From positions 577,488 to 641,487 of the forward strand of contig OZ246419.1 of NCBI GenBank assembly GCA_965231135.1: DNA of 64,000 nucleotides, written 5' to 3'. The position numbers and the translations under genes are program-made. Positions 1,604 through 19,645 of the stretch are shown here, in pieces. The notes under the pieces were generated by a model. It was not told the origin of the DNA. It saw only the letters and a list, made by a program, of their open reading frames with translations, and did not search any database. The stretch comes from an uncultured Gammaproteobacteria bacterium. Its GTDB lineage: Bacteria; Patescibacteriota; Microgenomatia; UBA8517. Position 1 is the first letter of the stretch. Every line of letters starts with the position of its first letter.

Positions 1604-2428
1604 ATGACAAGCACAAATATTGCAAGGACTGATGACGGGACTATTCAAATAAACTTTTCTATTCCTAAAGCTGATATTGATAAAGCACAGGAAAAAGCAG
1701 TCGAGGAATTATCAAAAGACATAACTGTAAAAGGATTTAGAAAAGGCAAAGCTCCAGTTGATAAAGCTAAAGAGAGAATTGACCCTGGAATGCTTCTTGA
1801 AAAAACTTTGGGGCAAATATTACCTGCCGCTTACACAAAAGCAATTGATGAAAACAAAATCAAACCAATAATTTATCCAAAGTTTGAAATTATGAAACAA
1901 GGAGATATCTGGGAAATTCAGGCAAAAGTTGCAGAATTACCGATAGTTGATTTGCCAGATTATAACGACATGGTTGCAGGAGCGATTCGAGCTGCATCTT
2001 TAAAGAAAGAATTAAGCAAACAAGAAAAAGAAGATGTTGTAATAAAAACTTTAATTGATTCAATAAAAGTGAAAGTTCCTAAGATTATTATTGATGAAGA
2101 AGTAAATGCTAGGCTCTCACAATTACTTGAAAGAACAGAAAAGCTTGGACTTAAACTTGAACAATATTTAGCAAGTATCGGGAAAACTGAACAAAGTCTT
2201 CGAGAGGAATATGAAAAACAGGTCGTTGATGGAATTTCCTTAGAACTTATTTTAAATAAAATGGCAGAAGTTGAAAAAATTGAAGCACCAGAATCTGAAG
2301 TAGAAACTGCAATAAAAAGCGCTGGGGTTACAGAAACTCACCAAGGACATGTTGACGAGCAAAAACAAATTGTACGAAGCGTACTTAAGCGCAGAATAGT
2401 TCTTGACCGACTTGCAAGTCTATCTTAA
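1604..2428 (+). CDS. tig: trigger factor, short form lacking the PPIase domain
   Basis: The N-terminal ribosome-binding signature 'GFRKGKAPV' is followed directly by a helical C-domain-like region. No FKBP segment is present. Confidence 0.6.
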   Translation: MTSTNIARTDDGTIQINFSIPKADIDKAQEKAVEELSKDITVKGFRKGKAPVDKAKERIDPGMLLEKTLGQILPAAYTKAIDENKIKPIIYPKFEIMKQGDIWEIQAKVAELPIVDLPDYNDMVAGAIRAASLKKELSKQEKEDVVIKTLIDSIKVKVPKIIIDEEVNARLSQLLERTEKLGLKLEQYLASIGKTEQSLREEYEKQVVDGISLELILNKMAEVEKIEAPESEVETAIKSAGVTETHQGHVDEQKQIVRSVLKRRIVLDRLASLS

Positions 2429-3068
2429 TATGGGGCAAATGGCTGACAAAACTTCAAAGCAGCAAAAAATAAAACAGATAAGGCAGGCTAACATTTTAGA
2501 AAGCCTAAAGGATCTTGGCGGAAATACTGGAAAAGCATTAGCACGCGAATCGGGAGCAATGAGCGAAGAATTTTTCAGACAACTTCTTGGAATCAAAAAG
2601 GCAAAAGTTTCTGGAGATTTGGAGCGAGGACAATCTTTTCAGCCAGGCAAAGCAATGACTGGAGAATATCAACAGGAACAAAAAGCCCAAAAACAAATAA
2701 GATTTGAAAGAAGACTTCTTGAAGAGCAAAAAGCCGAAGTCGAGAGAAAAAATAGTGAGTTGCAATTACAGCTTCATGCAATAACTAGAGAAATGCAATC
2801 TGTCGTTGAGACAACTCCAAAATTGGCAAAAGAAATACAAATCGCCCAAATAATTTCAGGAAACAAACCAGATATATATCATCTTTTGTTTTTAAATAAA
2901 ATTTTACAGTTTTTAAAAGATTTCAAGAAGAACATAGAGAATGCTTCAATCTGGTTTGCTGCACAAAATAAGCGTGCAAATAAACGAAATTTCTGGAACC
3001 AATATAAAGTGCAAAAAGGCTCAGCTTTATTAAACCCTGAAACTTATTCGCAAAGAAGTGCTGGTTAA
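2403..3068 (+). CDS. hypothetical coiled-coil protein
   Basis: The central region is rich in charged residues and Q/E/K heptad-like repeats. Confidence 0.3.
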   Translation: MTDLQVYLNMGQMADKTSKQQKIKQIRQANILESLKDLGGNTGKALARESGAMSEEFFRQLLGIKKAKVSGDLERGQSFQPGKAMTGEYQQEQKAQKQIRFERRLLEEQKAEVERKNSELQLQLHAITREMQSVVETTPKLAKEIQIAQIISGNKPDIYHLLFLNKILQFLKDFKKNIENASIWFAAQNKRANKRNFWNQYKVQKGSALLNPETYSQRSAG

Positions 3069-3235
3069 TGTATAATATTCCTAATGTTTAAGAAACTTCT
3101 CACGGCAGAGCCGCAAGCTTTGCTTATTATTAATTTGGTCGCCCTTATTACAAGGGCCTAAGTTAATGTGAGAGGGATGTAAAAGTAAAATAAAAATCAA
3201 AAAGCAAACCTTTCACACGAGAGGTTTTTTATTTT

Positions 3236-3640
3236 ATGGAAAGTTTTAATAAATACAAACCAGAAGATAATACTATAAATAAATGCGAGAACTGCCATGC
3301 TTGTTGCAAGAACATGATTATGAAGATAGAAAGTTTACAGAGAAGAAAAGCCTATCCAAATGCAATAAGATCTTCTTTTTACGGCACTCAATATTTATCC
3401 GAAAGTTGCGATGAAGGTGTTTATTATATCGAAACAAATGAATCCAGTCATACAGGTTTTGATACATTTGATGAAATTGTAATTAATGGAGACTGTCCAA
3501 ACTTGAAAGATAACGGCTGGTGTGGAATTTATAAAAGAAGACCTGATGCATGCACTTTGTTTAAAAAAGATTCTAAAGCATGCGTAGATAAAAAGTTAGA
3601 AGAATTTATACCAGATGAAACATTAAAGATTGTGAGGTGA
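3236..3640 (+). CDS. YkgJ-family putative Zn/Fe-chelating CxxCxxCC-domain protein
   Basis: The N-terminal motif is 'CENCHACC'. Confidence 0.45.
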   Translation: MESFNKYKPEDNTINKCENCHACCKNMIMKIESLQRRKAYPNAIRSSFYGTQYLSESCDEGVYYIETNESSHTGFDTFDEIVINGDCPNLKDNGWCGIYKRRPDACTLFKKDSKACVDKKLEEFIPDETLKIVR

Positions 3641-3644
3641 TAAT

Positions 3645-3836
3645 ATGACAGAAAGAGAAATAAGAACAAAAGGTTTTAATTGCGATAAGATAATGGAAGA
3701 GGTATTTGGACCAGATAAAGGTTGTGAGCCATATAGTGAAAATGTACAAAACCCAGTTGCAACAGTACAAGTACAATATCCAAGACCATTAATGCCAACA
3801 GCAAAAGGTTTGGGAGAAATGGTTAATGGAGAATAA
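3645..3836 (+). CDS. hypothetical small protein
   Basis: The 63-aa ORF follows the previous gene closely. Confidence 0.2.
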   Translation: MTEREIRTKGFNCDKIMEEVFGPDKGCEPYSENVQNPVATVQVQYPRPLMPTAKGLGEMVNGE

Positions 3837-3876
3837 GTAGATATGGATAGGTGGGTGATATATAATACACCTATCC

Positions 3877-3950
3877 GGGCGGTTAGCTCAGTTGGCTAGA
3901 GCGCTTTCTTGACGTGAAAGAGGTCGGGGGTTCGAGCCCCTCATCGCCCA
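3877..3950 (+). tRNA. tRNA-Val (anticodon GAC)
   Basis: The sequence folds as a cloverleaf: acceptor GGGCGGT/ATCGCCC, D-stem GCTC/GAGC, anticodon stem CTTTC/GAAAG with loop TTGACGT, T-arm GGGGG-TTCGAGC-CCCTC, and discriminator A. No CCA is encoded. Confidence 0.85.
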
Positions 3951-3951
3951 C
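3902..3951 (+). repeat. attL: 50-bp direct repeat (3' part of tRNA-Val), identical to 11087..11136
   Basis: An exact 50/50 match, 'cgctttcttgacgtgaaagaggtcgggggttcgagcccctcatcgcccac', appears at both sites. Confidence 0.85.
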
Positions 3952-3975
3952 TTGTATTTATGAAAAGTCGTTGCT

Positions 3976-5052
3976 GTGACAACGGCAGTCCGCTACAGAC
4001 GGCATAACGCTCAGGTGGTAACTCTCGGGAAGTTAGAAGCAATCCCTTGGGTTGCTATGGCTAACTTACAAGGTAAACATTTAGAAATCATATTAACTAA
4101 GTATCTTCAATGGTGCAAAATTGAACGTGGTCTTGCAAAGCAAACAGTTGCTGGGAAAAAACAGACTCTTGGCCATTTTTTGAAATATCTTGACGGCGAA
4201 AAATTGACGTTGAAGACTTCCAAAGATTATATGTATCATTTAAGTTCCGATTTGGGTTGGTCGGCAAATGGAATCAGAAGTGACTTTAATTCAAAAGTTA
4301 AACCATTTATTCATTGGCTTTTTGAAACAAAATATATAAAGATTGATTGGTCCAAAAAGATTAAGGTTCCCAAAGCACAACCAAAACAATATCCAGTAGT
4401 AAGTTTCGAAGAGCTAGATAAAACCATCTTCGCTGGAACCTCATTCACAGAAAAGGACTGTAAGCTTGCTAAAGAACGAAGGCTGGAAAACAGGGAAGCC
4501 TTACTCTTCGAAGCCAGAACAGGTTTAAGAATCGGGGCAATTATTGGACTCAAGAAAGAAGATGTCAATCTCAACTCTATCCCAGCAACTTTTAATGTTT
4601 ACAGTAAAGGTAAATTTCATACTGGCATAGTTCCTCCCGACTTAATTGAAATGATGAAAAGAAGATGTGTTGGCCCTGGAAAAGTTTTCAATGTTTATGG
4701 CGGCAGTCTTAATCACTATATAAGAAGAGGTTGCGAGAAGTTGGGAATATCAAATGATTTCCATTTCCATACCATGCGGCACAGTTTTGCCACAAGTTTA
4801 TTAAATAACGGGACAGATATTAGTATGGTAAGCAAAATCCTGGGTCATAGCAGTATTGGCATCACCGCAGACATTTATAGCCATTATTCCGTGCAAGACA
4901 AAGCCAGGGTTATTAATTCAATTCCTACAGTAAGAAAGTCTCTATCCACAGAGGAAAGGGCAAAAATAGTTATAGAAAAACTACAAAAAGACTTTGGTAT
5001 TATCAAATACACAAGAAAAGGTGAAAAACTAACAATTAATATCAAAATATAA
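3976..5052 (+). CDS. int: tyrosine recombinase / phage-type integrase
   Basis: The C-terminal catalytic signature is 'HTMRHSFATSLL...ILGHSSIGITADIYSHY'. The track begins at a GTG at 3976. An ATG at about 4054 is an alternative start. Confidence 0.85.
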   Translation: MTTAVRYRRHNAQVVTLGKLEAIPWVAMANLQGKHLEIILTKYLQWCKIERGLAKQTVAGKKQTLGHFLKYLDGEKLTLKTSKDYMYHLSSDLGWSANGIRSDFNSKVKPFIHWLFETKYIKIDWSKKIKVPKAQPKQYPVVSFEELDKTIFAGTSFTEKDCKLAKERRLENREALLFEARTGLRIGAIIGLKKEDVNLNSIPATFNVYSKGKFHTGIVPPDLIEMMKRRCVGPGKVFNVYGGSLNHYIRRGCEKLGISNDFHFHTMRHSFATSLLNNGTDISMVSKILGHSSIGITADIYSHYSVQDKARVINSIPTVRKSLSTEERAKIVIEKLQKDFGIIKYTRKGEKLTINIKI

Positions 5053-6798
5053 TTAGGAATAGTATTTTTGTAAGTCTCTCATCGGATCGTTATCTAAATC
5101 TGGGCCGACAGGTAACTTCTTCTTCCTAAGCAATTTAAGGGCATGTTTTAGATATTTCTTCTCAACAATTAATTCATGATTGGTTTTAGAAATTGCAAAA
5201 AAATCATGACTATCTAATGTCACTTCCTTTCTAGCTAGTTTTAAAAAAAGTTCAATTCTCGGAACAATAACTATTCTTTCCATAAACACCTTATCAGATT
5301 TATATGCATTTTCTAACCAATCTAATAAGTGTTGATGCACTGGCAATGCAGCAGCACCTGGAACAATCATGACGTTCGAAGGAGAAAAAAGTACAGCCTT
5401 ACGATCTTTAGATATACGAAAATGTAACATCTTGAATCTTTTTCCTTTGGAATCGTTTTCAGCGTTAGTCCAAAACTGAAAAATAGTAAGTGCTGGAAGA
5501 GGTTTGCCACTTCCTTTCTCAAAATTTATAACAATGCTATGTATTCCTGTTAAACCGAGAGCTACTTTCTTATCTGCATAATTTTCAAGGTTGATTAAAA
5601 TATAAATCGAATCAACGACTGCCTTTATTCTATCAATCTTATCAATTAAGTAGTCCACTTTATAAATTTTCCCTGAAGATTTTATTTTGATTACTTCCCT
5701 TTTCATGTCAATCAAATAATCATTATGGCCAGAAGTACTATTTCTCAACCCTGCATCATAAGCCATTCTTATTTTTCGCTTAAGAATAAGATCAGGGCAA
5801 TCATCAATTATCTTTTTGATCATTAAACCTTTCTTGTTTCCAATTTTTAAACCATTGTATTTTTTGCCAGCAAAAGGATTTAACATAAAAGATCCACCGT
5901 TACAAATATTTATAATGTTGTAAATTATATTAAGAACCTCGCTAATCTCAAAATAAGCTTGGTAAGCATCTAAGGCTATTTGGTAACTTCTCTTTTCAAC
6001 TTCCTTAACATCATTCATCCTCAACCTTTCCACAGGTACGAAACCACCGGTAATTCGCCTATAAGCCTCCTCTGATCGTAAATTATCTGATTCTTGTATT
6101 TTATTTAGTCCTATTTCTACCGATTCGAATAAAGTAGTGTAAGTTTTATCTTCGAAAAACATTTTGAGTGCTTTCTTGTATTCAGAAGGATTAACTTTCT
6201 CAGCCCGCTCAAATAAATTGTTAAATGCACTTACATAAGGTACTTTATATTTCTTTCTTTTATTTACAGAAGTAGATGAACGATACTCATTAAGAAATAG
6301 CATATATTGCAGTCGCCACAGTCCGTAGTCAAAACTATAAAAACTATCTGTAGGCAATAATCCAGCACCTAACTTATAAGCCTGAGCTGGATTTTCAATT
6401 AACAACTTACTAATCATGTTGGTTCTATTTCTAATTTGAGAATTAATCGAAGATATTGAGTTTACAAAACCTTCTTTATGCCAGCATTCAGCAAGAGGTC
6501 TTTTTAGATGCAAAAGTTTTGATCTCTTCACATACTGTCTAGTTAACATCACAAGCGCACCACACGTACACCTGTGCAGTTGTATACTCGAAGAATCATC
6601 ACTAAGAGCTTTCTCTACGCTCAACCAGAAACTACCAGCATATGGCAAACTCTTATAAACACCTTCCAGATAGCGAATATCCAACTGGTCTAGTTCCCTA
6701 ACTCTAGTTTCCGACTTCATAACATGATTATATTCGTTGTGTAAAGATATTTTAAAAAAGACATCTCTTAGGATGAATAATCCCCTGACTGTTTCCAC
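5053..6798 (-). CDS. large hypothetical protein, island cargo of unknown function
   Basis: The 581-aa ORF has no recognisable motif. The start may be the internal Met at about 6720. Confidence 0.4.
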   Translation of the reverse strand: METVRGLFILRDVFFKISLHNEYNHVMKSETRVRELDQLDIRYLEGVYKSLPYAGSFWLSVEKALSDDSSSIQLHRCTCGALVMLTRQYVKRSKLLHLKRPLAECWHKEGFVNSISSINSQIRNRTNMISKLLIENPAQAYKLGAGLLPTDSFYSFDYGLWRLQYMLFLNEYRSSTSVNKRKKYKVPYVSAFNNLFERAEKVNPSEYKKALKMFFEDKTYTTLFESVEIGLNKIQESDNLRSEEAYRRITGGFVPVERLRMNDVKEVEKRSYQIALDAYQAYFEISEVLNIIYNIINICNGGSFMLNPFAGKKYNGLKIGNKKGLMIKKIIDDCPDLILKRKIRMAYDAGLRNSTSGHNDYLIDMKREVIKIKSSGKIYKVDYLIDKIDRIKAVVDSIYILINLENYADKKVALGLTGIHSIVINFEKGSGKPLPALTIFQFWTNAENDSKGKRFKMLHFRISKDRKAVLFSPSNVMIVPGAAALPVHQHLLDWLENAYKSDKVFMERIVIVPRIELFLKLARKEVTLDSHDFFAISKTNHELIVEKKYLKHALKLLRKKKLPVGPDLDNDPMRDLQKYYS

Positions 6799-6995
6799 AA
6801 ATGAGCACGACCTTCACCTTTTACTCTAGGCATGATGTCACGAAGAGGAGTCTTACGATCTGTCAACTTGACGATCTCAGCTTCCAAGTCTTGACGTGCC
6901 AATAAAGAATTAGGAATAGGACCTGCAAAGCCACCTACGTCCACGTTCTTAGCAAAAAGATTCAATACTGCTTCTGGATCAATTGGATTGTTCAT
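6768..6995 (-). CDS. hypothetical small protein in a locally GC-richer segment
   Basis: The 75-aa ORF is noticeably more GC-rich than its flanks. No motif was recognised. Confidence 0.2.
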   Translation of the reverse strand: MNNPIDPEAVLNLFAKNVDVGGFAGPIPNSLLARQDLEAEIVKLTDRKTPLRDIMPRVKGEGRAHLWKQSGDYSS

Positions 6996-7007
6996 TAAAA
7001 TTGTTGT

Positions 7008-7036
7008 TTGACAAAGCCTGTAGTAAAGAATATATT
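7008..7036 (+). promoter_or_regulatory. sigma70-like promoter for the precursor operon
   Basis: TTGACA (7008-7013), a 17-nt spacer, then TATATT (7031-7036). An SD 'aaggtga' lies 8 nt before the ATG at 7072. Confidence 0.45.
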
Positions 7037-7071
7037 CTTTTTACATATTAATATGAGAGAAGGTGATTTAA

Positions 7072-7269
7072 ATGAGTAGAGAAGAAAGAAATCTAATAGA
7101 TGCATTACCACAACAAAATATTGGCGTTGCCATTAAAGGCCAGGATTGTGAACAAAGCTGTGGAAGTTGTAATAGCTGTGCCTGTGGAGACAATAGCTGT
7201 GGAAGTTGTTCATCGTGTGCTGATTGTGGATGCAATTGTTCAAATAGAGAAGGCAATATAACTAAATAG
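7072..7269 (+). CDS. RiPP precursor peptide (LAP/TOMM type), Cys/Ser/Gly-rich core
   Basis: The 65-aa peptide has a leader 'MSREERNLIDALPQQNIGVAIKGQD' and a core 'CEQSCGSCNSCACGDNSCGSCSSCADCGCNCS...'. It sits immediately upstream of the YcaO and SagB-like genes. Confidence 0.75.
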   Translation: MSREERNLIDALPQQNIGVAIKGQDCEQSCGSCNSCACGDNSCGSCSSCADCGCNCSNREGNITK

Positions 7270-7317
7270 TTATTTTTCAAGCAGTTTGCTATACTTTGGT
7301 GGTTTTTAAGCGTGTAA

Positions 7318-8625
7318 ATGAAAAATAATACCGTCAATACCATCAAAGAAATAGCATCTGCTTTACAGGATATTAAATTAGTTGAATCTTTTCAAAGAAC
7401 TCGTTTGCATTATGACGAGCCTAAGTTTTGGTTTTATTCTACAATCATAAACGATAAATATTTAAAGCACCAAGGGCAGCATTTTAGTTCTAATTCTTCT
7501 GGAGTATCTTTTTTTTCTCAAAATAAAGCCGTACTTAAATCACTATTTGAAGCGTTGGAAAGATATAGCAACTTTGCTTTCTTTAAAAAAGATATAGATT
7601 TCGTTGGAAGATTTGTTGATATCAAAACTAATGCAATTAATCCCGAATCCTTCTCGTATTTTTCGGAAAAACAATTAAATAATCCAGAATATAAAAAATT
7701 TAAAATAAACGATAAATCTAGATTTGATTGGACAAAGGTTAAATTATTAACCGACGGTAAGGAATATCTTGTACCCTGCCAGACAATATATCTTTCCTAC
7801 AAATTAATTAAGGGAGAGCCTACATTTTATCCTTCGATTAGTACAGGCGTAGCTGCTCATTCTGATTTGGACTCTGCAATTTTAGGAGGTATTTATGAGG
7901 TAATAGAGAGAGATTCTTTTATGATTTATTATTTAAATAAATTAAAACCAAAAAAATACAATTTAAAATCTTCTAAGAACAAAAAAATTCGCTCTCTGGC
8001 GGAAATTACCGAAAGATATCATATGGAATTATATTGTCTTGATATAACTACAGATTTAGGAATACCGACTGTGGCTTCCATTTTAATCGATCGATCGGGA
8101 TTAAGTAAGGCAGTTTCTGTAGGGTTAAAATCAAATTTAAATGTTGAAAAAGCTATCATTGGTTCAATTAACGAGGCCTACCATACAAGAAGTTGGATAA
8201 GAGAAGCATATATTCAAAATCCAACAAATATTACAGAAAAAGAGTTGCTTGAAAGTTCTAGTATGAAAAATAGAGGATTGCTTTGGTATAAACCTGAATC
8301 AATTTCTCATATTAACTTTTTAATTAAAGCGTTGAGATCTGAAGTTATTACCTTAAAAAATAATAATTTATCTGTAAAGGAACAAATCAGATATTTAAAT
8401 GACAGTTTAAATAAAGCTGGTTATAAAATTTATTATAAAGATATTACTCCTGAATATTTCAAAAATATCCATTTCAAAGCAGTAAAAGTAATAATACCTG
8501 GCATGCAACCATTATACTTAGAAGAAAAATTCGCACTTCGTGGAGGTAATAGATTGCACGCTGTTCCCGTTAAGTTGGGGTATAAAAATATTAGATTAAA
8601 CACCTACCCACATCCGTTTTTATGA
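7318..8625 (+). CDS. YcaO-domain cyclodehydratase (TOMM D protein)
   Basis: The YcaO ATP-binding motif is 'STGVAAHSDLDSAILGGIYEVIERD'. The C-terminus carries a Pro-rich 'YPHPFL' motif. Confidence 0.85.
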   Translation: MKNNTVNTIKEIASALQDIKLVESFQRTRLHYDEPKFWFYSTIINDKYLKHQGQHFSSNSSGVSFFSQNKAVLKSLFEALERYSNFAFFKKDIDFVGRFVDIKTNAINPESFSYFSEKQLNNPEYKKFKINDKSRFDWTKVKLLTDGKEYLVPCQTIYLSYKLIKGEPTFYPSISTGVAAHSDLDSAILGGIYEVIERDSFMIYYLNKLKPKKYNLKSSKNKKIRSLAEITERYHMELYCLDITTDLGIPTVASILIDRSGLSKAVSVGLKSNLNVEKAIIGSINEAYHTRSWIREAYIQNPTNITEKELLESSSMKNRGLLWYKPESISHINFLIKALRSEVITLKNNNLSVKEQIRYLNDSLNKAGYKIYYKDITPEYFKNIHFKAVKVIIPGMQPLYLEEKFALRGGNRLHAVPVKLGYKNIRLNTYPHPFL

Positions 8626-9392
8626 AAAACGATAAAACAATAAACATACTTAAAAAGCTAGAGCTTTCATCTTCAATAAAATTTAATAATAGTATTAAGA
8701 TAAAGAATTTTAGTAAAACAAAAACTTCATATAGTGCTTGGCCTGAGCAGTGGAAGAAGGTTTATTACAAAGCATATCCTAAATTTCCTCAAGTTTTGTT
8801 ACCTGATCCAGCAAGAGCACGCTGGAGCTTAGATGATGCATTGATTAAACGAAAATCTCAAAGAGAATTTACAAAAAAAGATATAAAAATCCAAGATCTC
8901 TCTACTTTGCTGTATTTTTCAAGCGGTTTAAAAGAACTTTTGTTTAAAGGATCTGGAGAAAGAAGGTTTTATCCTTCTGCAGGAGCTAGGTATCCTTTAG
9001 AAATTTATCCAGTCATTTTTAATGCGGAAAGCATTAAACCTGCAATTTATCATTATCATGTTAAAAGTCATTCTTTAGAAGAAATATATAGCAATAGTTT
9101 TGTAGCGCAAATAATTAAGCAGTTTAATCAACCATGGATACGTAAGTCTTCAATGTTAATTGTTGTTTCAGCTGTTTTTGAAAGGACTGATAACAAATAC
9201 GGAGATAGGGGGCTAAGACATATATTTACCGAATATGGTCATTATGCTCAAAATATTTACCTGATTTCACAAGAGCTAGGCCTTGGTTCATGTTCTATAG
9301 GCGGATTTATTGACGATGGATTGAACAAATTATTGGATTTTGACCCAATAGATGAAAGTGTAATTGGTGTTATTGCAATAGGAACTTTATAG
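8622..9392 (+). CDS. SagB-type dehydrogenase (azoline oxidase, TOMM B protein; nitroreductase fold)
   Basis: Signature motifs 'KRKSQREF', 'PSAGARYPLEIY' and 'YHYHVKSHSL' are present. An ATGA overlap links it to the ycaO gene. Confidence 0.85.
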   Translation: MKNDKTINILKKLELSSSIKFNNSIKIKNFSKTKTSYSAWPEQWKKVYYKAYPKFPQVLLPDPARARWSLDDALIKRKSQREFTKKDIKIQDLSTLLYFSSGLKELLFKGSGERRFYPSAGARYPLEIYPVIFNAESIKPAIYHYHVKSHSLEEIYSNSFVAQIIKQFNQPWIRKSSMLIVVSAVFERTDNKYGDRGLRHIFTEYGHYAQNIYLISQELGLGSCSIGGFIDDGLNKLLDFDPIDESVIGVIAIGTL

Positions 9393-9405
9393 TATAATTC
9401 TTTAG

Positions 9406-10059
9406 ATGTTTTTATTTCTTGTTAGACATGCAGAAGCTGACGGTGTAAAGGATCGTTGGCAAGCTCCAAATTCAAAGTTAAGTAAATTAGGTGAACAACA
9501 GGCAGGAGCTTTGGCTAATCAGCTTAAGTCATTCAAGATAGATCAAATATTCTCTAGTGATTTAGAAAGATCTACTCAAACAGCAGATATTATTTCCAAA
9601 AAAATCGGAGTAGAAACTAGCATCTTAGATTATATTTGTGAAAGACAGCAGTTAGATGAAATGTATGGAGCACAAAGAGAAAGTAATATATCAAAAAAAT
9701 ATATTGAAGAATCTCGCCATAATTTCAATAATCTTGATTGGAAATTTGAAGATAAGGAAGAATCTGTACGTGAGGTTATAAATCGCACTATGGAATTAAC
9801 CTCATTTTTAACGAAAAACTTCCAAGGTAAAAGAGTAGCAATTGTTTCGCATGATTTATTTATTAGATGTTTAATCAGTAGAATTTTGTTAGGTAAGGAT
9901 TATTCTGACACACAAATGGCTAGGAGCATTAACACATTAACCATAGACAATACTGGTTTGTCGTTATTAATCCATAGTAGTCAGTTCCAAATGTGGAAAA
10001 TTAATTACATCAATAATTATTCGCACTTTAAAGACATAAGAATAAATAACCGTCAATAA
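9406..10059 (+). CDS. histidine phosphatase family protein (PGAM-like)
   Basis: The N-terminal catalytic motif is 'LVRHAEA' of the RHG family. It is the last gene of the cluster operon. Confidence 0.65.
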   Translation: MFLFLVRHAEADGVKDRWQAPNSKLSKLGEQQAGALANQLKSFKIDQIFSSDLERSTQTADIISKKIGVETSILDYICERQQLDEMYGAQRESNISKKYIEESRHNFNNLDWKFEDKEESVREVINRTMELTSFLTKNFQGKRVAIVSHDLFIRCLISRILLGKDYSDTQMARSINTLTIDNTGLSLLIHSSQFQMWKINYINNYSHFKDIRINNRQ

Positions 10060-10997
10060 TTTTTCCAAACTTCTTCATTATCAACATATTTTAAAACTTT
10101 GCCGTGTGTCTCCTTTGCTGTTGATAAATAAGGACTACTGTTCCTGTAAAAATAAGTTAAAGCTCTTGAAGATATGAAAAGCAAATAGAAGGCGAGGTTC
10201 GACCTTTCAGATTCAGATAATCTTTCTCCTGAGAGGTACCCGTTTAAGAAAGTTGAAAAGTCATCTTTTGGTCTATCAGTTCGAATCTGGTGAAATAAAT
10301 AGTATCCAATATCATTTAACCATGTTTCCTCTGTCCACTCTCCAAAATCTATTAATACTGGAATATTTTCCTCGGTAACAATAACCTGGCCATCATGTAA
10401 ATCATTGTGGTTAAAAGTTGGCTGTGTTTCGTTGCAAAACTGCTCCATTAAATCTCTAAAGCTTTTAATTAGTGCATAAGATTTACTGTCAATATTAATT
10501 TCTTCAAGACCAACTCGTGACCAATTAAAAATATATTTATCATAGTAAGCAAATGAATTTCTACCTGTTGCTTTCCAACTATCACCAGTAACCTGCGCTG
10601 TATTATGCATTATTCTGATTTGATTGCCTAATTTATCCTTAATCCCTGGATTTGGATTAAAATACAAACTTTTTCCATGAATACGTGTTGATACCAGTGC
10701 TAGATGATCTTGATTGTAATTAACAAGTGCAATAGGTGAAGGTGTTGCAATACCTGTAGAATGTGCCGTATTTAAACCTCTCCACTCATGTTCAGCTTGA
10801 TTCTTACGTGCAGTCTTTTTAATTACAACATCCATACCAGATTGTGTTCTAGCATAGATAATTTCACCGCCAGTAAACGGTATTTTATTTTTTTCAGTAA
10901 TTTCAAGATCAATTGAACTTGCATATTTTTCAAGTGAGCTTTGGACAGTTGCAAAATGTTCTGTAGACATACAAATGATTATATCAATGCATATCAA
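10053..10997 (-). CDS. aminoglycoside phosphotransferase / protein-kinase-like fold phosphotransferase
   Basis: The catalytic loop 'HNDLHDGQVIV' (HxDxxxxN) and a DFG-like 'LIDFGEW' are present. Confidence 0.6.
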   Translation of the reverse strand: MICIDIIICMSTEHFATVQSSLEKYASSIDLEITEKNKIPFTGGEIIYARTQSGMDVVIKKTARKNQAEHEWRGLNTAHSTGIATPSPIALVNYNQDHLALVSTRIHGKSLYFNPNPGIKDKLGNQIRIMHNTAQVTGDSWKATGRNSFAYYDKYIFNWSRVGLEEINIDSKSYALIKSFRDLMEQFCNETQPTFNHNDLHDGQVIVTEENIPVLIDFGEWTEETWLNDIGYYLFHQIRTDRPKDDFSTFLNGYLSGERLSESERSNLAFYLLFISSRALTYFYRNSSPYLSTAKETHGKVLKYVDNEEVWKNY

Positions 10998-11086
10998 ATA
11001 AGAGGATTTATTTATAATTTTGAAAAATATATTTTTAATAATATAATGTTTTTGGGAATTGCTCTAAATTTAGAGGTCCACTTTAA

Positions 11087-11136
11087 CGCTTTCTTGACGT
11101 GAAAGAGGTCGGGGGTTCGAGCCCCTCATCGCCCAC
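11087..11136 (+). repeat. attR: 50-bp direct repeat (partial tRNA-Val 3' end)
   Basis: It is identical to 3902..3951. No 5' half of a tRNA is present here. Confidence 0.85.
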
Positions 11137-11149
11137 AAATAGCTTTAAA

Positions 11150-11455
11150 ATGGCAAATAAACTAAAATCTCCTTTTCCGAAATATGTCTACGAAAGGAAC
11201 TCGGAAATTTATAAATTAATGGCGAACCCCAAAAGACTTGAAATTTTAAATATTATAAAAAACACCGAAGCTAGCGTTGATCAGCTTTCTGAAATAATTG
11301 GTATACGAAAAGCAAATACTTCTCAACATCTTTCTATCTTAAGACATTTGAGAATAGTAAACGTCAGGAAGGAAGGAAAAAATTCTTATTACAAGCTAGT
11401 AAACCCAGAACTTATCGCTCCGTGTGCCATATTGATGAAACTCTGGAATAAATAG
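11150..11455 (+). CDS. ArsR/SmtB-family transcriptional regulator
   Basis: The wHTH region is 'LEILNIIKNTEASVDQLSEIIGIRKANTSQHLSILRHLRIV'. The track ORF begins at 11099 inside the att repeat. The ATG at 11150 is the more likely start. Confidence 0.6.
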   Translation: MANKLKSPFPKYVYERNSEIYKLMANPKRLEILNIIKNTEASVDQLSEIIGIRKANTSQHLSILRHLRIVNVRKEGKNSYYKLVNPELIAPCAILMKLWNK

Positions 11456-11516
11456 CCTCTTGATTTTTTTAGAAGGAAATGTTGATAATGAATTATGGTT
11501 TCTTATGTTCGAAACT

Positions 11517-13679
11517 ATGAAATATAAACTGGTAGGGATCTTTATATTAGTATTGTTATTTTTTATTATTGGCGTTAAGAGTAGCTTTGCGGCAACTTAT
11601 TATGTTTCTCCAAGTGGAAACGATTCGTACGGCGGATCCTTGGCAAGTCCGTGGAAAACATTAACCCATGCTGCAAACATTGCAGTTTCTGGAGATATTG
11701 TTTATATAAGGACGGGGACTTATCATGAGGTATTAGCGCCGATAGTAAGCGGAGCCCAATCTTCACCTATTACTTTTAAAGCATATCAAGGTGAGACACC
11801 AATTATTAGCGGTGTAAATTCCGGAGGCAGTCCGCCAAACGTAACCGGGCTTGCAACAGGGATTAATCTTGCAAACAAAAGCTATATTGTTGTTGATGGA
11901 TTAATTGTACGAGATGTTTATGACCATTGGGCAGATTTAACTAATGCAAACAATAATACACTTCAGAACATGACATTTACTTTTTCAACTCAATACGGAA
12001 CGGGGAATTGGCAGGGAATATTAATGGACGGATCAAGCTTTAATAAGATCTTAAATTCAACAATCGAGAAATGGGGCTGTCCACAAGATGTTTATAACTG
12101 CGGAGGTGATGCTATAAATATGAAAGGTGGAGCCTATAATAATTTAATACAGGGAAATACTTTTGGCAGTGCGATGCATGCAGAAGTACAAATTCAATCC
12201 GGGCATGATAATATAATTCGTCAAAATACTTTTACAAACGATATTGAAAAAGATTTGGAGATTACCGATAGAGTACAAAACACAACTTACCATAATTTAA
12301 TAGAATTAAACACTTTTAGACAAGCTGGCTGGAACAACGAAAATCACGGAGGAATGCATATTCAAATGGCGTCTTCGCGAAATATTATACGAAATAACAT
12401 ATTTACAGATTCAAGCGGAGAAGCGATGAATTGTGAAGTTTGGAGCGATTCAGGAGATATTGTTTATGATTGCGCCAACAACCGGGTTTATAACAATACT
12501 ATTGTCCATACAATGATTGATCCGGGAGGGTATCCAAATGGAGCAGGCGGTTCAAACCAAAACTGGATACCTGGGGGGCTCTATATTGATAATTTTGGCT
12601 ATGGTATGTATCCGATTACGGGGAATGTTTTTAAAAATAATATTTTTTATGATAACCAACCTAACACAGGTATTGATCCTGGGGATGATCAAATTTGGAT
12701 CTTGGATTCCAAGATCTCTCTTGATTCTAATCTTTTTCAAGGGAATATATTCTTTCATCAGAATGCATCTGACCATACTATACATGTCCAAGGGGTTATT
12801 AGCGGAACTGCAATAGAAGCAAATAATAATTTGTCCGGTAATTTTTCAGGAAATTTAGCAACAGCTCCGACTTTTATCACTTATGCTCCTGCTACAATTC
12901 CAGAAACTTATGATTTGCATTTGAGATCAGGGAGCGCTGGCATAGATCAAGGAGCCAACTTAACACAGACTACGGCCTCAGGGAACGGAACTGCAATTTC
13001 TGTTGCAGATGCAAGTTATTTTCAAGATGGATATCTGGGTATGATAACAGCAGACAGTATTCGTGTGGGCAACTCTGCTGCTATTATTTCTTCAGTTGAT
13101 TTAGTTAATAATATTATTAACGTTGATAGATCGCTCAGTTGGCAAAGCGGAGATGCTGTTAACTTGTTATATGCAGGAAGTGCTCCTGATATTGGAGTAT
13201 ACGAATATGGGACGATCACTATTTATCCTGCAGATCAACCAAGTGGCAATGATAATCCTACGCAAAATAATAGTTCAACTTCCTCAATTACTAGTAGTGC
13301 TAATAGTAATTATTGCAGCGACACAAAGCCTGCAAAAAAGGTGGATCTTTTTGAAATAGATCGAGCTGGATCAACAGCTATTTTATATTTTACTCCAAGC
13401 GACAAGAACACAAGGCGATATAATGTAATATTTGGTTTTAAGGAAAATGACGAACGATTCGGAGGAATTGGTATTTATTCACAAAATAATAACGAAGGTG
13501 TACAAAATATAAAAATAGACCATTTAGACCGTAATACATCTTATTCGTTTAAAATTATACCAATAAACGGCTGCGCATTTGGGGAATGGTCAAACTGGCT
13601 TACCACAAAAGGTTCTCAAAACAGTTCAGGAATTTTATGGAAAACATATAAATATTTGAGGAAAATTTTGAAAACTTAG
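11517..13679 (+). CDS. secreted right-handed beta-helix (pectate-lyase fold) protein with a C-terminal Fn3-like region
   Basis: A signal peptide 'MKYKLVGIFILVLLFFIIGVKSSFA' is followed by 'TYYVSPSGNDSYGGSLASPWKTL'. Repeated 'N-x-I/F' beta-helix rungs follow. Confidence 0.55.
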   Translation: MKYKLVGIFILVLLFFIIGVKSSFAATYYVSPSGNDSYGGSLASPWKTLTHAANIAVSGDIVYIRTGTYHEVLAPIVSGAQSSPITFKAYQGETPIISGVNSGGSPPNVTGLATGINLANKSYIVVDGLIVRDVYDHWADLTNANNNTLQNMTFTFSTQYGTGNWQGILMDGSSFNKILNSTIEKWGCPQDVYNCGGDAINMKGGAYNNLIQGNTFGSAMHAEVQIQSGHDNIIRQNTFTNDIEKDLEITDRVQNTTYHNLIELNTFRQAGWNNENHGGMHIQMASSRNIIRNNIFTDSSGEAMNCEVWSDSGDIVYDCANNRVYNNTIVHTMIDPGGYPNGAGGSNQNWIPGGLYIDNFGYGMYPITGNVFKNNIFYDNQPNTGIDPGDDQIWILDSKISLDSNLFQGNIFFHQNASDHTIHVQGVISGTAIEANNNLSGNFSGNLATAPTFITYAPATIPETYDLHLRSGSAGIDQGANLTQTTASGNGTAISVADASYFQDGYLGMITADSIRVGNSAAIISSVDLVNNIINVDRSLSWQSGDAVNLLYAGSAPDIGVYEYGTITIYPADQPSGNDNPTQNNSSTSSITSSANSNYCSDTKPAKKVDLFEIDRAGSTAILYFTPSDKNTRRYNVIFGFKENDERFGGIGIYSQNNNEGVQNIKIDHLDRNTSYSFKIIPINGCAFGEWSNWLTTKGSQNSSGILWKTYKYLRKILKT

Positions 13680-13718: not shown

Positions 13719-14696
13719 ATGGATAGAAAGTCCCTTATTATTGGTGTAATTATTGTTATCGCTCTTGCTATTGGTGGAGTTTTTTTAGTGAAATCTAAAA
13801 AGATTAATAACCAAAACGTTTTATCTGCTCAAACTTCTACAACTACCGACCCAAACCAAATGCCAATTCTTGAAATTTTCTCAGGAAATGTTTTCATCAA
13901 ACAAAATGGTGCAAGCGATTTTGTCAGTGCTACAGATCAGGAAAAAGTAAATGTTGGAGATGTTATAAAAACAGATGCAACAGGGAGAGCACAAGTACTT
14001 TATCCAACGCACAGCGTAACTCGTATTGATTTTAATAGTGAAATGACTATTGAAAATTACACTACAACTCCTAGCGTTACAAAAGTAAAGGTTGATCAAG
14101 GAAATATCTGGAGCAGAGTTGCTAAACTTTTTGGAAGTAGTGACTCAAACGATACAGAAAATGATACTTTAGTTGCATCAGTGCGCGGAACTTCTTATGG
14201 ACTTGGAAGCGATACAAACGGAAATACAATTGTTGAAATTATTAAATCTCACGTTTATGTGGAGTGCAATGCTGATGCAAGCAAAAATATTGATCTACAA
14301 ACAAATAATAAATTGATTACAAACTGTCTTAGTAAACTTTCTTCTGTAAAATTGACAAACAGCGATTTAAATAGTGACTGGGTAAAATTTAATGAAGATC
14401 AAGATAAAATTTTGGATCAACGATTTCCAGAAAGTTTTGATGATGAACCAAGCCCAACTCCAACACCTAAGCCAACTTTAAAACCAACAGCTAAGCCTAC
14501 TGCTTCTCCAACTCCTATTACAACACAAGCGCCAACTAGCTCACCAACAAATACTCCGACTCCAACGCCAACACCGACTTACACTCCAAGAAAAACATCT
14601 ACACCGATTCCTACTCCAACACCAACTTACTTTATTGATTACCCAATTTATTATCCTATCTATACTCCCTCGCCAACACCACCGGTGATAAAATAA
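13719..14696 (+). CDS. membrane-anchored FecR-domain protein with a Pro/Thr-rich C-terminal tail
   Basis: An N-terminal TM helix is followed by a FecR-like region and a PTPTPKPT low-complexity C-terminus. Confidence 0.45.
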   Translation: MDRKSLIIGVIIVIALAIGGVFLVKSKKINNQNVLSAQTSTTTDPNQMPILEIFSGNVFIKQNGASDFVSATDQEKVNVGDVIKTDATGRAQVLYPTHSVTRIDFNSEMTIENYTTTPSVTKVKVDQGNIWSRVAKLFGSSDSNDTENDTLVASVRGTSYGLGSDTNGNTIVEIIKSHVYVECNADASKNIDLQTNNKLITNCLSKLSSVKLTNSDLNSDWVKFNEDQDKILDQRFPESFDDEPSPTPTPKPTLKPTAKPTASPTPITTQAPTSSPTNTPTPTPTPTYTPRKTSTPIPTPTPTYFIDYPIYYPIYTPSPTPPVIK

Positions 14697-17807: not shown

Positions 17808-17837
17808 CAAAGCTTGCGCATTGCCAACAGTCCTTTA

Positions 17838-17908
17838 GGGCCTGTCGTTCAATGGTAGGACACCTGGCTGGCAGTCAGGGAACTGGGGTTCGATTCCCCA
17901 TGGGTCCA
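17838..17908 (+). tRNA. tRNA-Ala (anticodon GGC)
   Basis: The 71-nt sequence folds as a cloverleaf: acceptor with a G3:U70 pair, anticodon loop CTGGCAG, T-arm TGGGG-TTCGATT-CCCCA, and discriminator A. Confidence 0.7.
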
Positions 17909-17945
17909 CACTTGTAATATAAAATATTTTTTATATAATTCATTT

Positions 17946-18221
17946 ATGTCTTGTGAAACAAAACTATTTACAAATGCACTTGAGTTTGAACAATTTAAGA
18001 GTTCGCGGAATTTAAACAATGAAAATTTTATTGCTGAAGTAAAAGAAGCAAGAGAAAGACATCAGAAATTACTAGCGCTTGGTTTTGAAAGCAGAAAAGC
18101 AAACAGAAACTTAACCAATGCAATGTCTTATAGAGAATCTTATGATTTACAATTTAGGAATCAAAGAAAAATTTGGTCAATTGATTTTGAACAACAAAAA
18201 GGATTAAGAAATCTCGCATAA
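17946..18221 (+). CDS. hypothetical protein
   Basis: The ORF is 91 aa. Confidence 0.3.
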   Translation: MSCETKLFTNALEFEQFKSSRNLNNENFIAEVKEARERHQKLLALGFESRKANRNLTNAMSYRESYDLQFRNQRKIWSIDFEQQKGLRNLA

Positions 18222-18379: not shown

Positions 18380-19645
18380 ATGAATAAGACGAAAAAAATA
18401 ATTGAACCAAAACAAGAGCAATCTTTTGATCATAAAGTTTTAGGAAAAGAATTAGATTTATTTACTTTTTCTGAAGTTGTTGGCAAAGGATTGCCTCTTT
18501 GGACTCCAAAAGGAGCTTCAATAAGGCGTGAACTTGAGAGATTTATTGTTGATGAAGAAATAAAACGAGGGTACCAGCACGTTTATACTCCAGATATTGC
18601 AAACTTAGGGCTTTATAAAAAGAGCGGGCATTATCCGTATTATAAAGATTCAATGTATGCGCCAATTGTAATTGATGATGAAGAATATATGCTTCGCCCT
18701 ATGACTTGCCCACATCATTTTGAGCTTTATTTAAGCAGACCAAGAAGCTATCGAGAGTTGCCAATGAGAATTGCAGAGATTTCAAAACTTTATAGATATG
18801 AGCAGTCAGGAGAATTAATGGGACTTCAGCGAGTGCGAAGTTTTTGTTTGTCTGATGCACATATAATTACTCAAAAAGAAAATGCGATGGATGAAATTGA
18901 AAAAGTATTGGATTTAATTGATTATGTAACTAATATACTTGGTCTGGTTAAATATAAAGACTATAAATATAGACTTTCTTTAGGGGATAGAAATGATTCA
19001 CAAAAATATTTTAAAGACGATAAAGCATGGGATGATGCAGAAGAAATATTAAGAAAGGCATTAAAATCTCGCAAAATAGAATTTACAGAAGCAGAAAAAG
19101 AAGCCGCGTTTTATGGACCAAAAATTGATATTCAAATGGTTAATGCAAACGGAAAAGAAGATACAGCAATTACAGTGCAATATGATTTTGTAATGCCAAA
19201 GCGATTTGACTTAACTTTTATAAACGAAAAAGGCGAAAAGGAGGAAGCAGTGGTGGTGCACCGATCAAGTATTGGAGCAATTGAGAGAACAATTGCGTTC
19301 TTGATTGAGAAATACAAGGGTGCATTTCCTCTTTGGCTTAGCCCTGTACAAGTTAAAATCTTGCCACTTACAGAGCGAAATGTAGATTATGCTAAGAAAA
19401 TTTATGAGGAACTGATGGAGAATAAAATTAGAGTGGAAATTGATGATAGAAATGAAACTCTTGGAGCGAAAATTCGCGATGCGCAGAAAGAAAAGGTAAA
19501 TTATATGGTAATTGTTGGCGACCGAGACGAGAAAGTAAAAGTAATTTCCGTGCGTACACGCGGCGAAAAAGACCTTGGACAAATGAAATTAGACGAATTT
19601 TTGAGTAAAATAAGACAAGAAATTGAAACTAAGAGCCTAAACTGA
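18380..19645 (+). CDS. thrS: threonyl-tRNA synthetase, short form (catalytic core plus anticodon-binding domain only)
   Basis: A class II core and a C-terminal anticodon-binding domain are present. The 421-aa protein lacks the N-terminal TGS/editing domains. Confidence 0.9.
   Translation: MNKTKKIIEPKQEQSFDHKVLGKELDLFTFSEVVGKGLPLWTPKGASIRRELERFIVDEEIKRGYQHVYTPDIANLGLYKKSGHYPYYKDSMYAPIVIDDEEYMLRPMTCPHHFELYLSRPRSYRELPMRIAEISKLYRYEQSGELMGLQRVRSFCLSDAHIITQKENAMDEIEKVLDLIDYVTNILGLVKYKDYKYRLSLGDRNDSQKYFKDDKAWDDAEEILRKALKSRKIEFTEAEKEAAFYGPKIDIQMVNANGKEDTAITVQYDFVMPKRFDLTFINEKGEKEEAVVVHRSSIGAIERTIAFLIEKYKGAFPLWLSPVQVKILPLTERNVDYAKKIYEELMENKIRVEIDDRNETLGAKIRDAQKEKVNYMVIVGDRDEKVKVISVRTRGEKDLGQMKLDEFLSKIRQEIETKSLN

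Follow-up and report, generated by a model that had tools for sequence, protein, structure and literature searches.

A probable strain-variable tRNA-Val island carrying a predicted azol(in)e-peptide module in a Patescibacteria genome

Introduction

Bacteria of the candidate phyla radiation (CPR, or Patescibacteria) are notable for their tiny genomes and are believed to lead a life attached to host cells. Tyrosine-integrase elements that target tRNA genes share with their target an identity block of ~45–60 bp, which reaches from the anticodon stem-loop as far as the tRNA 3′ end. Here we describe a locus at which these two subjects meet. It lies in a 64-kb window of contig OZ246419.1 (assembly GCA_965231135.1; "the window" denotes this whole stretch and positions are counted from its first base) and comprises a 7.2-kb segment beside an intact tRNA-Val(GAC) gene. 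The segment is very probably an integrase-inserted, strain-variable element whose main cargo is an azol(in)e-type module for a peptide that is synthesized ribosomally and modified post-translationally (RiPP).

Clusters for linear azol(in)e-containing peptides (LAPs) have been described from CPR genomes before: Sharrar et al. (2020, mBio, PMC7298704) counted 110 in 93 genomes, 89 with a nitroreductase beside the cyclodehydratase YcaO. Clusters combining YcaO and a nitroreductase were found again in CPR metagenome-assembled genomes (MAGs) from acid-mine material (PMC12153355), and genomic islands have been catalogued in Patescibacteria (PMC12455944). An initial annotation of the window, made from the sequence alone, had recognized a CPR-like genome, correctly so, given that exact protein matches locate the window on NCBI contig DASZQR010000010.1 (810,692 bp; GCA_035549555.1), the proteins of which NCBI labels 'Patescibacteria group bacterium'. 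Its further remark that a mobile RiPP cluster would be unusual in such a genome is only partly right, both LAP clusters and genomic islands being on record there.

The target tRNA and the direct repeats

The segments 3902–3951 and 11087–11136 are identical at 50/50 positions, in agreement with the initial annotation, and are the only exact repeats of 28 nt or longer in the window. By our own estimate, ~1e-21 such pairs of exact 50-mers would be expected by chance in 64 kb. The left-hand copy lies within an intact tRNA gene (Table 1); its description as 49 nt of tRNA plus one further base fits the Rfam match, which ends at 3950. At the right-hand site there is no 5′ half of a tRNA, a point on which the sequence itself, ARAGORN and Rfam agree, and an Rfam scan of the island region returned the tRNA as its sole match. 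The segment 3952–11136 amounts to 7185 bp, of which 7135 bp (3952–11086) are unique island DNA and the remainder is the right-hand core.

The anticodon loop, between its inverted stem arms, falls inside the 50-nt core. Tyrosine integrases that target tRNA genes usually cross over at the anticodon loop, between the inverted stem arms (Reiter 1989, Williams 2002); by analogy, strand exchange at the present locus would take place at the anticodon loop of tRNA-Val.

The target sequence is not peculiar to this genome. A 41-mer of the tRNA had no match among viral contigs and one among JGI metagenomes, where contig Ga0070741_10217480 carries at 1599–1673 a tRNA-Val(GAC) identical over all 75 nt. Its surroundings are unrelated, with a gene of the HIT family on one side, an open reading frame (ORF) for a small membrane protein on the other, and no island. 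Since the identical tRNA-Val occurs there, the attB sequence is available in other organisms; and since tRNAs are shared between genomes in this way, contigs of the Logan assemblies can break at tRNA ends.

Empty site and strain variability

A sibling strain carries the site without the island. A Logan contig of 1066 bp from run SRR12170518 (L093), located through the 90% cluster of the ArsR protein encoded beyond the right-hand repeat (a cluster that held one variant), joins window positions 3877–3951 to 11137–12127. It starts at the first base of the tRNA, reads through the whole tRNA into AAATAGC and the ArsR gene, and continues into the next gene. Against the predicted empty site it shows 6 mismatches in 1066 nt (~99.4% identity) and no indel at the junction. 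This is the arrangement, tRNA-Val directly followed by ArsR, that had been proposed as the decisive thing to look for. The six single-nucleotide polymorphisms (SNPs) relative to the MAG indicate that the contig derives from a different strain, and because it crosses the 50-nt core without a branch the island junctions must be absent from that run or negligible in it.

The Logan assemblies are built with k=31, shorter than the core, and their contigs break accordingly around the island. Left-flank contigs from runs SRR12170510, -14 and -16 end at 3931, 30 nt inside the core; the island stands as a separate contig of 7195 bp, exactly 3922–11116; and right-flank contigs, one of them 186.5 kb in length, begin at 11107. 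Breaks at 3931, 3922, 11116 and 11107 are the pattern expected from a 50-nt repeat present twice. Identity to the window is 100% for the island contig, for the right-flank contigs (both of them) and, on the left flank, for the contigs of SRR12170510 and -14. The initial annotation had allowed that the repeat might be an assembly artefact; independent assemblies reproduce it.

The left-flank contig of SRR12170516 differs from window 1908–3931 at 8/2024 positions, and the island and right-flank contigs of the same run match the window, from which it follows that the sample series contains two strains or more.

The island is thus present in some members of the population and absent from others that are ~99.4% identical, and the insertion or excision must therefore be recent. 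That the attR copy is still perfect though unselected, and that the integrase is intact, likewise speak for a recent event and for an element that is probably functional.

The empty site was also sought through relatives of the 134-aa CxxCxxCC protein (PF03692) of the left flank, the gene of which (3236–3640, + strand) lies immediately upstream of the tRNA. In a collection of 5.8e9 proteins its sole relative is a 99% variant; on this evidence the lineage has barely been sampled.

The integrase and the nature of the island

The gene that the initial annotation placed directly downstream of the tRNA does begin there, at 3976, and is a tyrosine integrase, scoring 75.4 bits against PF00589 (cut-off 27.1) and 126 bits against the integrase family phrog_1. 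Its ORF is intact, the motifs TGLRIG, SKGKFH, HTMRH, LGHSS and IYSHY can be read in the translation, and the catalytic R-K-H-R-H/W-Y set of tyrosine recombinases is complete. Identity to phage integrases is 25–29% across 70–85% of its length; no match was obtained among viral contigs.

A housekeeping XerC/XerD dimer resolvase acting at a dif site, which had been named as an observation that would overturn the island, was considered and rejected. The protein scores 94.2 bits against the XerD model (TIGR02225, equivalog cut-off 329.6) and 85.7 bits against that for XerC (TIGR02224, cut-off 335.15), values so far under the cut-offs that it is not a resolvase of this kind, and the repeat is a tRNA segment with no dif palindrome.

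Pfam and PHROG scans detected no virion, replication or conjugative-transfer gene in any island gene, nor was there a match in viral contigs. The only functionally annotated PHROG match is the integrase, which bears out the earlier statement that the cargo is free of phage structural genes. A prophage, an integrative and conjugative element (ICE) or an actinomycete ICE (AICE) were on these grounds ruled out. Repeat, intact tRNA, phage-type integrase and empty site together support the attL(tRNA)-integrase...attR architecture originally proposed.

Table 1. Coordinates of the tRNA-Val island, its genes and its right-hand neighbour in the window
Feature	Position	Strand	Evidence and remarks
Intact tRNA-Val(GAC)	3877..3951	+	ARAGORN; Rfam RF00005, 60.6 bits at 3877–3950; attL core copy formed by its 3′ 50 nt
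attL core, 50-nt direct repeat	3902..3951	+	from 2 nt 5′ of the anticodon stem to the tRNA 3′ end
Tyrosine integrase, 358 aa	3976..5052	+	PF00589, phrog_1; starts 25 nt past the tRNA
Orphan protein, 555 aa	5053..6720	-	mechanical ORF extends to 6798 (581 aa); homologue alignment supports a start at 6720
75-aa ORF	6768..6995	-	gene call in NCBI and Logan assemblies
Promoter-like site, TTGACA-17-TATATT	7008..7036	+	11/12 match, joint-best score in the region; left edge of conserved DNA
Precursor peptide, 65 aa	7072..7269	+	translation; orthologues in L010, L011, L013, L016
YcaO cyclodehydratase (TOMM SagD-type D protein), 435 aa	7318..8625	+	PF02624, 202 bits; TIGR03604
SagB-type FMN dehydrogenase (azoline oxidase), 256 aa	8622..9392	+	TIGR03605; PDB sequence matches 3EO7, CyaGox, McbC
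Histidine phosphatase (branch 1, His_Phos_1), 217 aa	9406..10059	+	PF00300, 106 bits; synteny
APH-family phosphotransferase (kinase), 305 aa, convergent with the operon	10053..10970	-	PF01636, 42.8 bits; synteny
attR core, displaced tRNA-Val 3′ fragment without 5′ half	11087..11136	+	repeat comparison, sequence; ARAGORN and Rfam call no tRNA
ArsR/SmtB regulator, host gene just beyond the island	11150..11455	+	PF01022, NF033788; adjoins the tRNA in the empty-site strain

TOMM, thiazole/oxazole-modified microcin; FMN, flavin mononucleotide; APH, aminoglycoside phosphotransferase.

The RiPP module

All of the cargo genes named in the initial annotation (precursor, YcaO, SagB, phosphatase, kinase and 581-aa ORF) are present. 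The precursor, MSREERNLIDALPQQNIGVAIKGQDCEQSCGSCNSCACGDNSCGSCSSCADCGCNCSNREGNITK, has a conserved leader (MSREERxL..ALPQQN) and a core rich in Cys-Xaa-Xaa units, DCEQSCGSCNSCACGDNSCGSCSSCADCGCNC, and its last 40 residues contain 11 Cys and 8 Ser; no NCBIfam precursor model matched it. YcaO scores 259.5 bits against the TOMM SagD model TIGR03604 (cut-off 219.25), and the dehydrogenase 141.7 bits against TIGR03605 (cut-off 78.4). Of the hallmarks of a LAP/TOMM cluster, a SagD-type YcaO, a SagB-type dehydrogenase and an adjacent precursor composed of a leader and a Cys/Ser-rich core are present. The YcaO domain occupies residues 68–397 of the 435-aa protein, which aligns only to the YcaO domains (residues ~420–781) of the cyanobactin heterocyclases TruD, LynD and MusD.

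The module in other genomes

The protein collection holds 314 homologues of YcaO, the closest 61–72% identical; those of the closest with a source name are labelled 'Patescibacteria group bacterium' (two) and 'Clostridia bacterium' (one). The order of five genes (small ORF, YcaO, SagB, His_Phos_1 and convergent APH) is kept in GCA_040961665.1, GCA_036381415.1, GCA_964583685.1 and DATKVU01, and the module is thus found in at least four other MAGs, where we refer to the loci as L010, L011 (in GCA_036381415.1), L013 (in GCA_964583685.1) and L016. A scan of genomes found pairs of YcaO and SagB also in MAGs labelled Levybacteria and other Patescibacteria.

The conserved unit has sharp limits. At the nucleotide level L010 and L011 match the window only from 7008 to 10906 or 10962, and position 7008 is both the start of homology and the first base of the promoter-like site, the hexamers TTGACA...TATATT of which are present in L011 too. 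A self-contained module of ~3.95 kb, 7008–10970, is so delimited. Outside it nothing is shared: the neighbours are unrelated in 3/3 module loci with gene annotation, in none of these three is there an integrase within 10 kb, and no relative of the island integrase occurs in any of the four related loci, to which the integrase, the 555-aa gene and the 75-aa ORF are all foreign and hence specific to the tRNA-Val island.

The precursors of these modules are orthologous. Their leader follows the pattern MSRxERsL.EAlPQQN and their core is nearly invariant (DCxQSCGxCxxCACGxxSCGSCSSCAxCGC). The histidine phosphatase is 56–71% identical in L010, L011, L013 and L016, with its motifs RHA and SHD invariant in the five genomes; the APH kinase, 55–62% identical, keeps its place in every close relative, and its motifs FNHNDLHDGQ and IDFG do not vary among the five genomes. 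The initial annotation had listed phosphatase and kinase as additional cargo; since both are conserved in the module of every close relative examined, they belong to the pathway.

In L011 an exact direct repeat of 27 nt, AGTTATCTGGAGAGAAATAGCTCCATA, stands on either side of the module alone, at 9590–9616 and 13737–13763 of DASVCV010000001.1. The first copy forms the last 27 nt of a gene for a 510-aa protein, and the base after either copy makes a stop codon complete (TAA and TAG). The DNA between the copies encodes no recombinase. To judge from this arrangement, the same module has apparently been inserted a second time, independently and site-specifically, here into the 3′ end of a protein-coding gene.

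The module in L013 is surrounded by several dispersed families of intergenic repeats, 58–113 nt in length and with 2–4 copies each (1240–1352, 4838–4950, 7480–7744, 14573–14659, 17823–18050 and 18633–18757). On the minus strand they contain a motif that is GGTTCGAAACC-like and resembles a T-loop; ARAGORN calls no tRNA in them. They may be miniature inverted-repeat transposable elements (MITEs) or tRNA-derived scars.

Two more distant loci with YcaO and SagB (L018 and L026; YcaO identity 38–43%) have upstream small ORFs with acidic, Cys-rich ends, ...GDGTSCAGSCGCDSADGCAECGCGRSPSSRK and ...CECDGGSCLGDCSDCGSSDCGSCEGCSGDCGGSGLKKK in that order, and an APH-like gene lies nearby in L018. These core sequences suggest a broader clade of Cys-rich azole-peptide precursors.

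The remaining island genes and other features of the window

The 555-aa protein and the 75-aa ORF are cargo separate from the RiPP module. The former, whose ORF had been given as 581 aa, is probably 555 aa in length, judging from its alignment with homologues. No match to it was found in Pfam, PHROG, NCBIfam, PADLOC or PDB sequences. A word-indexed search returned one relative only, 35% identical and encoded beside a serine recombinase gene; with an exhaustive profile search the number rose to 54, out of 1.84e9 representative proteins. Pfam matched 0/30 members of the family, and a profile search of PDB sequences gave a chance-level match only (E 0.4). The AlphaFold2 model of the protein has a predicted local distance difference test score (pLDDT) of 91.4, and structure comparison with this predicted fold gave no match. 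Invariant in the family are E258, R326 and H332 (motif LRNxTSGHNDY). A second homologue lies among genes for an XRE-type helix-turn-helix (HTH) protein, a DUF5677 hydrolase, and DUF5659, GIY-YIG and HTH_17 proteins, a neighbourhood that by its gene content reads as an accessory or defence-island setting.

The 75-aa ORF has a weak PHROG match (phrog_13692, E 3.7e-4), no match in phages or in the related module loci, and is a singleton at 90% clustering. Two explanations of it were discarded: that it is an N-terminal capsid fragment, for which a phage match was missing, and that it forms with the 581-aa ORF one frameshifted gene, given that the homologue P0002 starts at the start of the 555-aa protein and that the upstream gene in L008 is unrelated.

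Elsewhere in the window, a 69-nt repeat of 81% identity (42087–42155 and 43248–43316, minus strand) lies inside two adjacent minus-strand genes, 41760–42815 and 42831–44570. Its translation corresponds to the His-box of PilT/PilB-type secretion ATPases, and the two genes are probably tandem type IV pilus ATPase paralogues.

Discussion

The arrangement is readily accommodated by a simple scheme in which the element's own tyrosine integrase would direct its insertion specifically into tRNA-Val(GAC). The attP site of the element would have contained a duplicate of the tRNA part that reaches from the anticodon stem to the 3′ end, and because of this integration would rebuild an intact tRNA at attL and leave the displaced 50-nt 3′ fragment at attR. 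Which of the two tRNA copies (attL or attR) is ancestral is something that we infer. Given that no replication, transfer or virion genes are present, movement from cell to cell would presumably need a helper or the uptake of DNA.

As to the product, family membership and conserved synteny together suggest the following route. YcaO would use ATP to activate backbone amides, and Cys, perhaps also Ser, of the Cys-Xaa-Xaa core would be converted to azolines, which the FMN-dependent flavoprotein SagB would oxidize to azoles. The APH-type kinase and the histidine phosphatase most probably add phosphate to the peptide and remove it, and such phosphorylation could be a step of maturation or a reversible means of self-protection. 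The leader might be recognized by YcaO itself, or by a short N-terminal extension of either SagB or YcaO; a partner encoded elsewhere is unlikely, since the module is compact and its context differs in each genome.

Several observations weigh against this account. With regard to mobility, the evidence for an empty site comes from a single 1066-bp contig, assembled with k=31 from a low-coverage run, and is thus at the level of the assembly graph rather than of reads; with the k-mers of both inner junctions lost, an island-bearing genome could in principle also give a path that leads from the 5′ half of the tRNA over the core to ArsR. No excised circle or attP junction was seen, but assemblies with k=31 cannot resolve attP across the 50-nt core. 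Pfam and PHROG scans of the island genes found no excisionase of the HTH_17 or Xis type. Present-day activity is accordingly conjectural, and the polymorphism may stem from one event in the past. The composition of the island, furthermore, is not distinct from that of the host: GC content is 32.9% as against 35.1% in the rest of the window, and the tetranucleotide distance falls inside the window's range, so that a compositional comparison suggested at the outset proved uninformative.

With regard to the pathway, the initial annotation had called it complete-looking. Precursor, YcaO and SagB are indeed in place, and the claim fails in respect of three other components. No gene for an E1-like (SagC/McbB) or Ocin-ThiF-like partner with a RiPP recognition element (RRE) is found in the island or in the conserved modules of its relatives, and none is fused to YcaO, a negative that covers whole genes and fusions to YcaO; the first ~90 aa of SagB may contain a cryptic RRE. 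Pfam and NCBIfam scans of the module revealed neither a leader peptidase or other protease nor an exporter. With E1/RRE partner, leader protease and exporter missing, the formation of azoles and the release and export of the peptide remain predictions. The strong conservation of the core peptide, finally, is not typical of diversifying bacteriocins.

What the module represents can be stated tentatively. It is possible, though we would put it at rather less than an even chance, that the five genes define an undescribed, CPR-specific subclass of azole-peptide systems, with a YcaO that works independently of a partner, a conserved Cys-Xaa-Xaa peptide and phospho-dependent maturation or self-protection by kinase and phosphatase, a step not known from LAPs, spread among episymbionts on minimal integrative elements, the 555-aa protein adding an unseen fold. 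The locus bears on why CPR bacteria keep azole-peptide clusters and how the distribution of these becomes so patchy: it offers a concrete case, precise to the base pair, of a cluster gained or lost as a 7.2-kb integrase-driven unit between 99.4% identical strains, and the horizontal spread of RiPP clusters among CPR thereby becomes directly testable. The cassette of ~4 kb, with a promoter-like site of its own, is small enough for heterologous expression and suited to asking whether YcaO forms azolines without E1/RRE and what kinase and phosphatase do in a LAP pathway.

Among other ways to read the data, one that deserves serious attention, though we consider it unlikely, is that the island is a nested composite, the RiPP module being an independently mobile cassette that landed in an older islet made up of the integrase and the 555-aa gene. 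The sharp ends of homology at 7008 and ~10962 are what such a history would leave, the integrase, 555-aa gene and 75-aa ORF are never beside the module in other genomes, the module in L011 stands alone within its 27-nt repeats with no recombinase inside, and homologues of the 555-aa protein travel with other recombinases. Within the tRNA-Val island, however, neither repeats nor a recombinase flank the module, and the empty site shows the whole 7.2 kb to be gained or lost as one unit.

A second reading concerns the role of the peptide, which might be not an antibiotic but a conserved, thiazole- and thiol-rich molecule serving the physiology of the producer, for example in metal binding or in a redox or cofactor-like function; kinase and phosphatase would then regulate the peptide rather than tailor or detoxify it. 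We regard this as doubtful, albeit worth keeping in mind. It would explain why the core and all Cys positions are nearly invariant even though the YcaO proteins are only 61–72% identical, and why the module comes without exporter, immunity pump or protease; the acidic, Cys-rich cores of more distant CPR clusters agree with it as well. Patchy distribution, a strain-variable island and unrelated contexts are, on the other side, the pattern of accessory, conflict-type genes. To our knowledge, moreover, all characterized systems that combine YcaO and SagB yield bioactive peptides. Published accounts of such systems are in keeping with this (PMC4603692, PMC7298704).

Improbable, in our judgement, is a fixed fossil, that is a single insertion that has lost the ability to excise, with the empty-site contig an artefact of the assembly path. 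The gaps already listed (no recognizable excisionase, no transfer or replication genes, a composition indistinguishable from the host, and one k=31 contig of 1066 bp as witness of the empty site) are compatible with such a relic, but an attR still identical at 50/50 positions to the tRNA though unselected, and an integrase ORF intact with all its catalytic motifs, are not what would be expected of one, and the contig L093, with its 6 SNPs, belongs to another strain and crosses the core without the branch seen in the three other runs. An artefact of assembly or a chimera as the source of the repeat, or an XerC/D recombinase at a dif-like site, can practically be dismissed. MAG contigs can be chimeric at repeats, and by E-value the best NCBIfam matches of the integrase are the XerD, XerA and XerC models; yet all four junctions, two inner and two outer, recur in independent Logan assemblies, and the island, both right-flank and the SRR12170510 and -14 left-flank contigs equal the window base for base. 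The scores for XerD (94 bits) and XerC (86 bits) are far short of their cut-offs (330 and 335), and the repeat is a 3′ tRNA segment lacking a dif palindrome.

Comparison with known systems

For the island that we favour, an integrase-inserted element at tRNA-Val with an azol(in)e-type module as cargo, the nearest relations are the LAP clusters of CPR. Like those described in the accessible text of Sharrar et al., the present cluster has YcaO beside a nitroreductase/SagB protein and a small upstream precursor rich in Cys and Ser, and no separate E1-like protein is reported for them in that text. The published example there has a peptidase and an 84-aa precursor; in their place the present subfamily has a conserved histidine phosphatase, an APH kinase and a precursor of 65–75 aa, the Cys-Xaa-Xaa core of which hardly varies. 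That a cluster may ride on a strain-variable tRNA island bounded by an integrase is something of which that text makes no mention. In the literature that we searched we found neither the five-gene composition with kinase and phosphatase, nor the conserved precursor family, nor strain-variable integrative carriage of such a module, and no publication on the combination of YcaO with a histidine phosphatase.

Heterocycloanthracin clusters use a fused cyclodehydratase. Along with sonorensin, in the Bacillus cereus group, they resemble the present module in that Cys-Xaa-Xaa units recur along the core and that YcaO is paired with a dehydrogenase of the SagB type, as far as the available portions of Haft (2009, PMC2674419) and Cox et al. 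(2015, PMC4603692) describe them; in those of the latter, thiopeptide clusters with D proteins that group with heterocycloanthracin are likewise given a single fused cyclodehydratase. Here, by contrast, YcaO stands alone, the leader is unrelated, no precursor model matches, and a kinase and a phosphatase are added. Membership of the heterocycloanthracin family was considered and rejected, in view of the unfused cyclodehydratase and the lack of a match to any NCBIfam precursor model.

By sequence the closest solved structures are TruD, LynD and MusD, over which the whole YcaO domain can be aligned. These enzymes are ~780 aa in length and begin with a region of ~410 residues, which we take to be the E1-like/RRE domain that binds the leader; it has no counterpart in the 435-aa YcaO.

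A phosphotransferase has a precedent in trifolitoxin (tfx) of Rhizobium, where, in the available text (bioRxiv 10.64898/2025.12.02.691738), the YcaO-like TfxE is accompanied by FMN-dependent dehydrogenases and the phosphotransferase TfxG, the role of which is said to be still unclear. TfxG is the only phosphotransferase of a YcaO cluster that we found in the searched literature, and its likeness to APH is one of description only. The same text gives tfx an export pump and several dehydrogenases, unlike the module here, and mentions no histidine phosphatase. A candidate for a trifolitoxin-like cluster in Rhizobium tibeticum (L059) was set aside, being a cluster of three YcaO genes without an APH.

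As an integrated element, finally, the island is of the same build as P4-like islands, mycobacteriophage L5 and actinomycete integrative elements of the pSAM2 type, in all of which the integrase lies beside the att site, the intact tRNA is restored and a 3′ fragment is left behind. It departs from them in that its integrase is merely 25–29% identical to phage integrases and in its economy: with only 7.2 kb, no recognizable Xis and no genes for replication, transfer or virions, it amounts to a minimal islet. Since tRNA-integrating islands, CPR LAP clusters and CPR genomic islands were each known already, the advance made by bringing the three together at one locus is incremental rather than conceptual.

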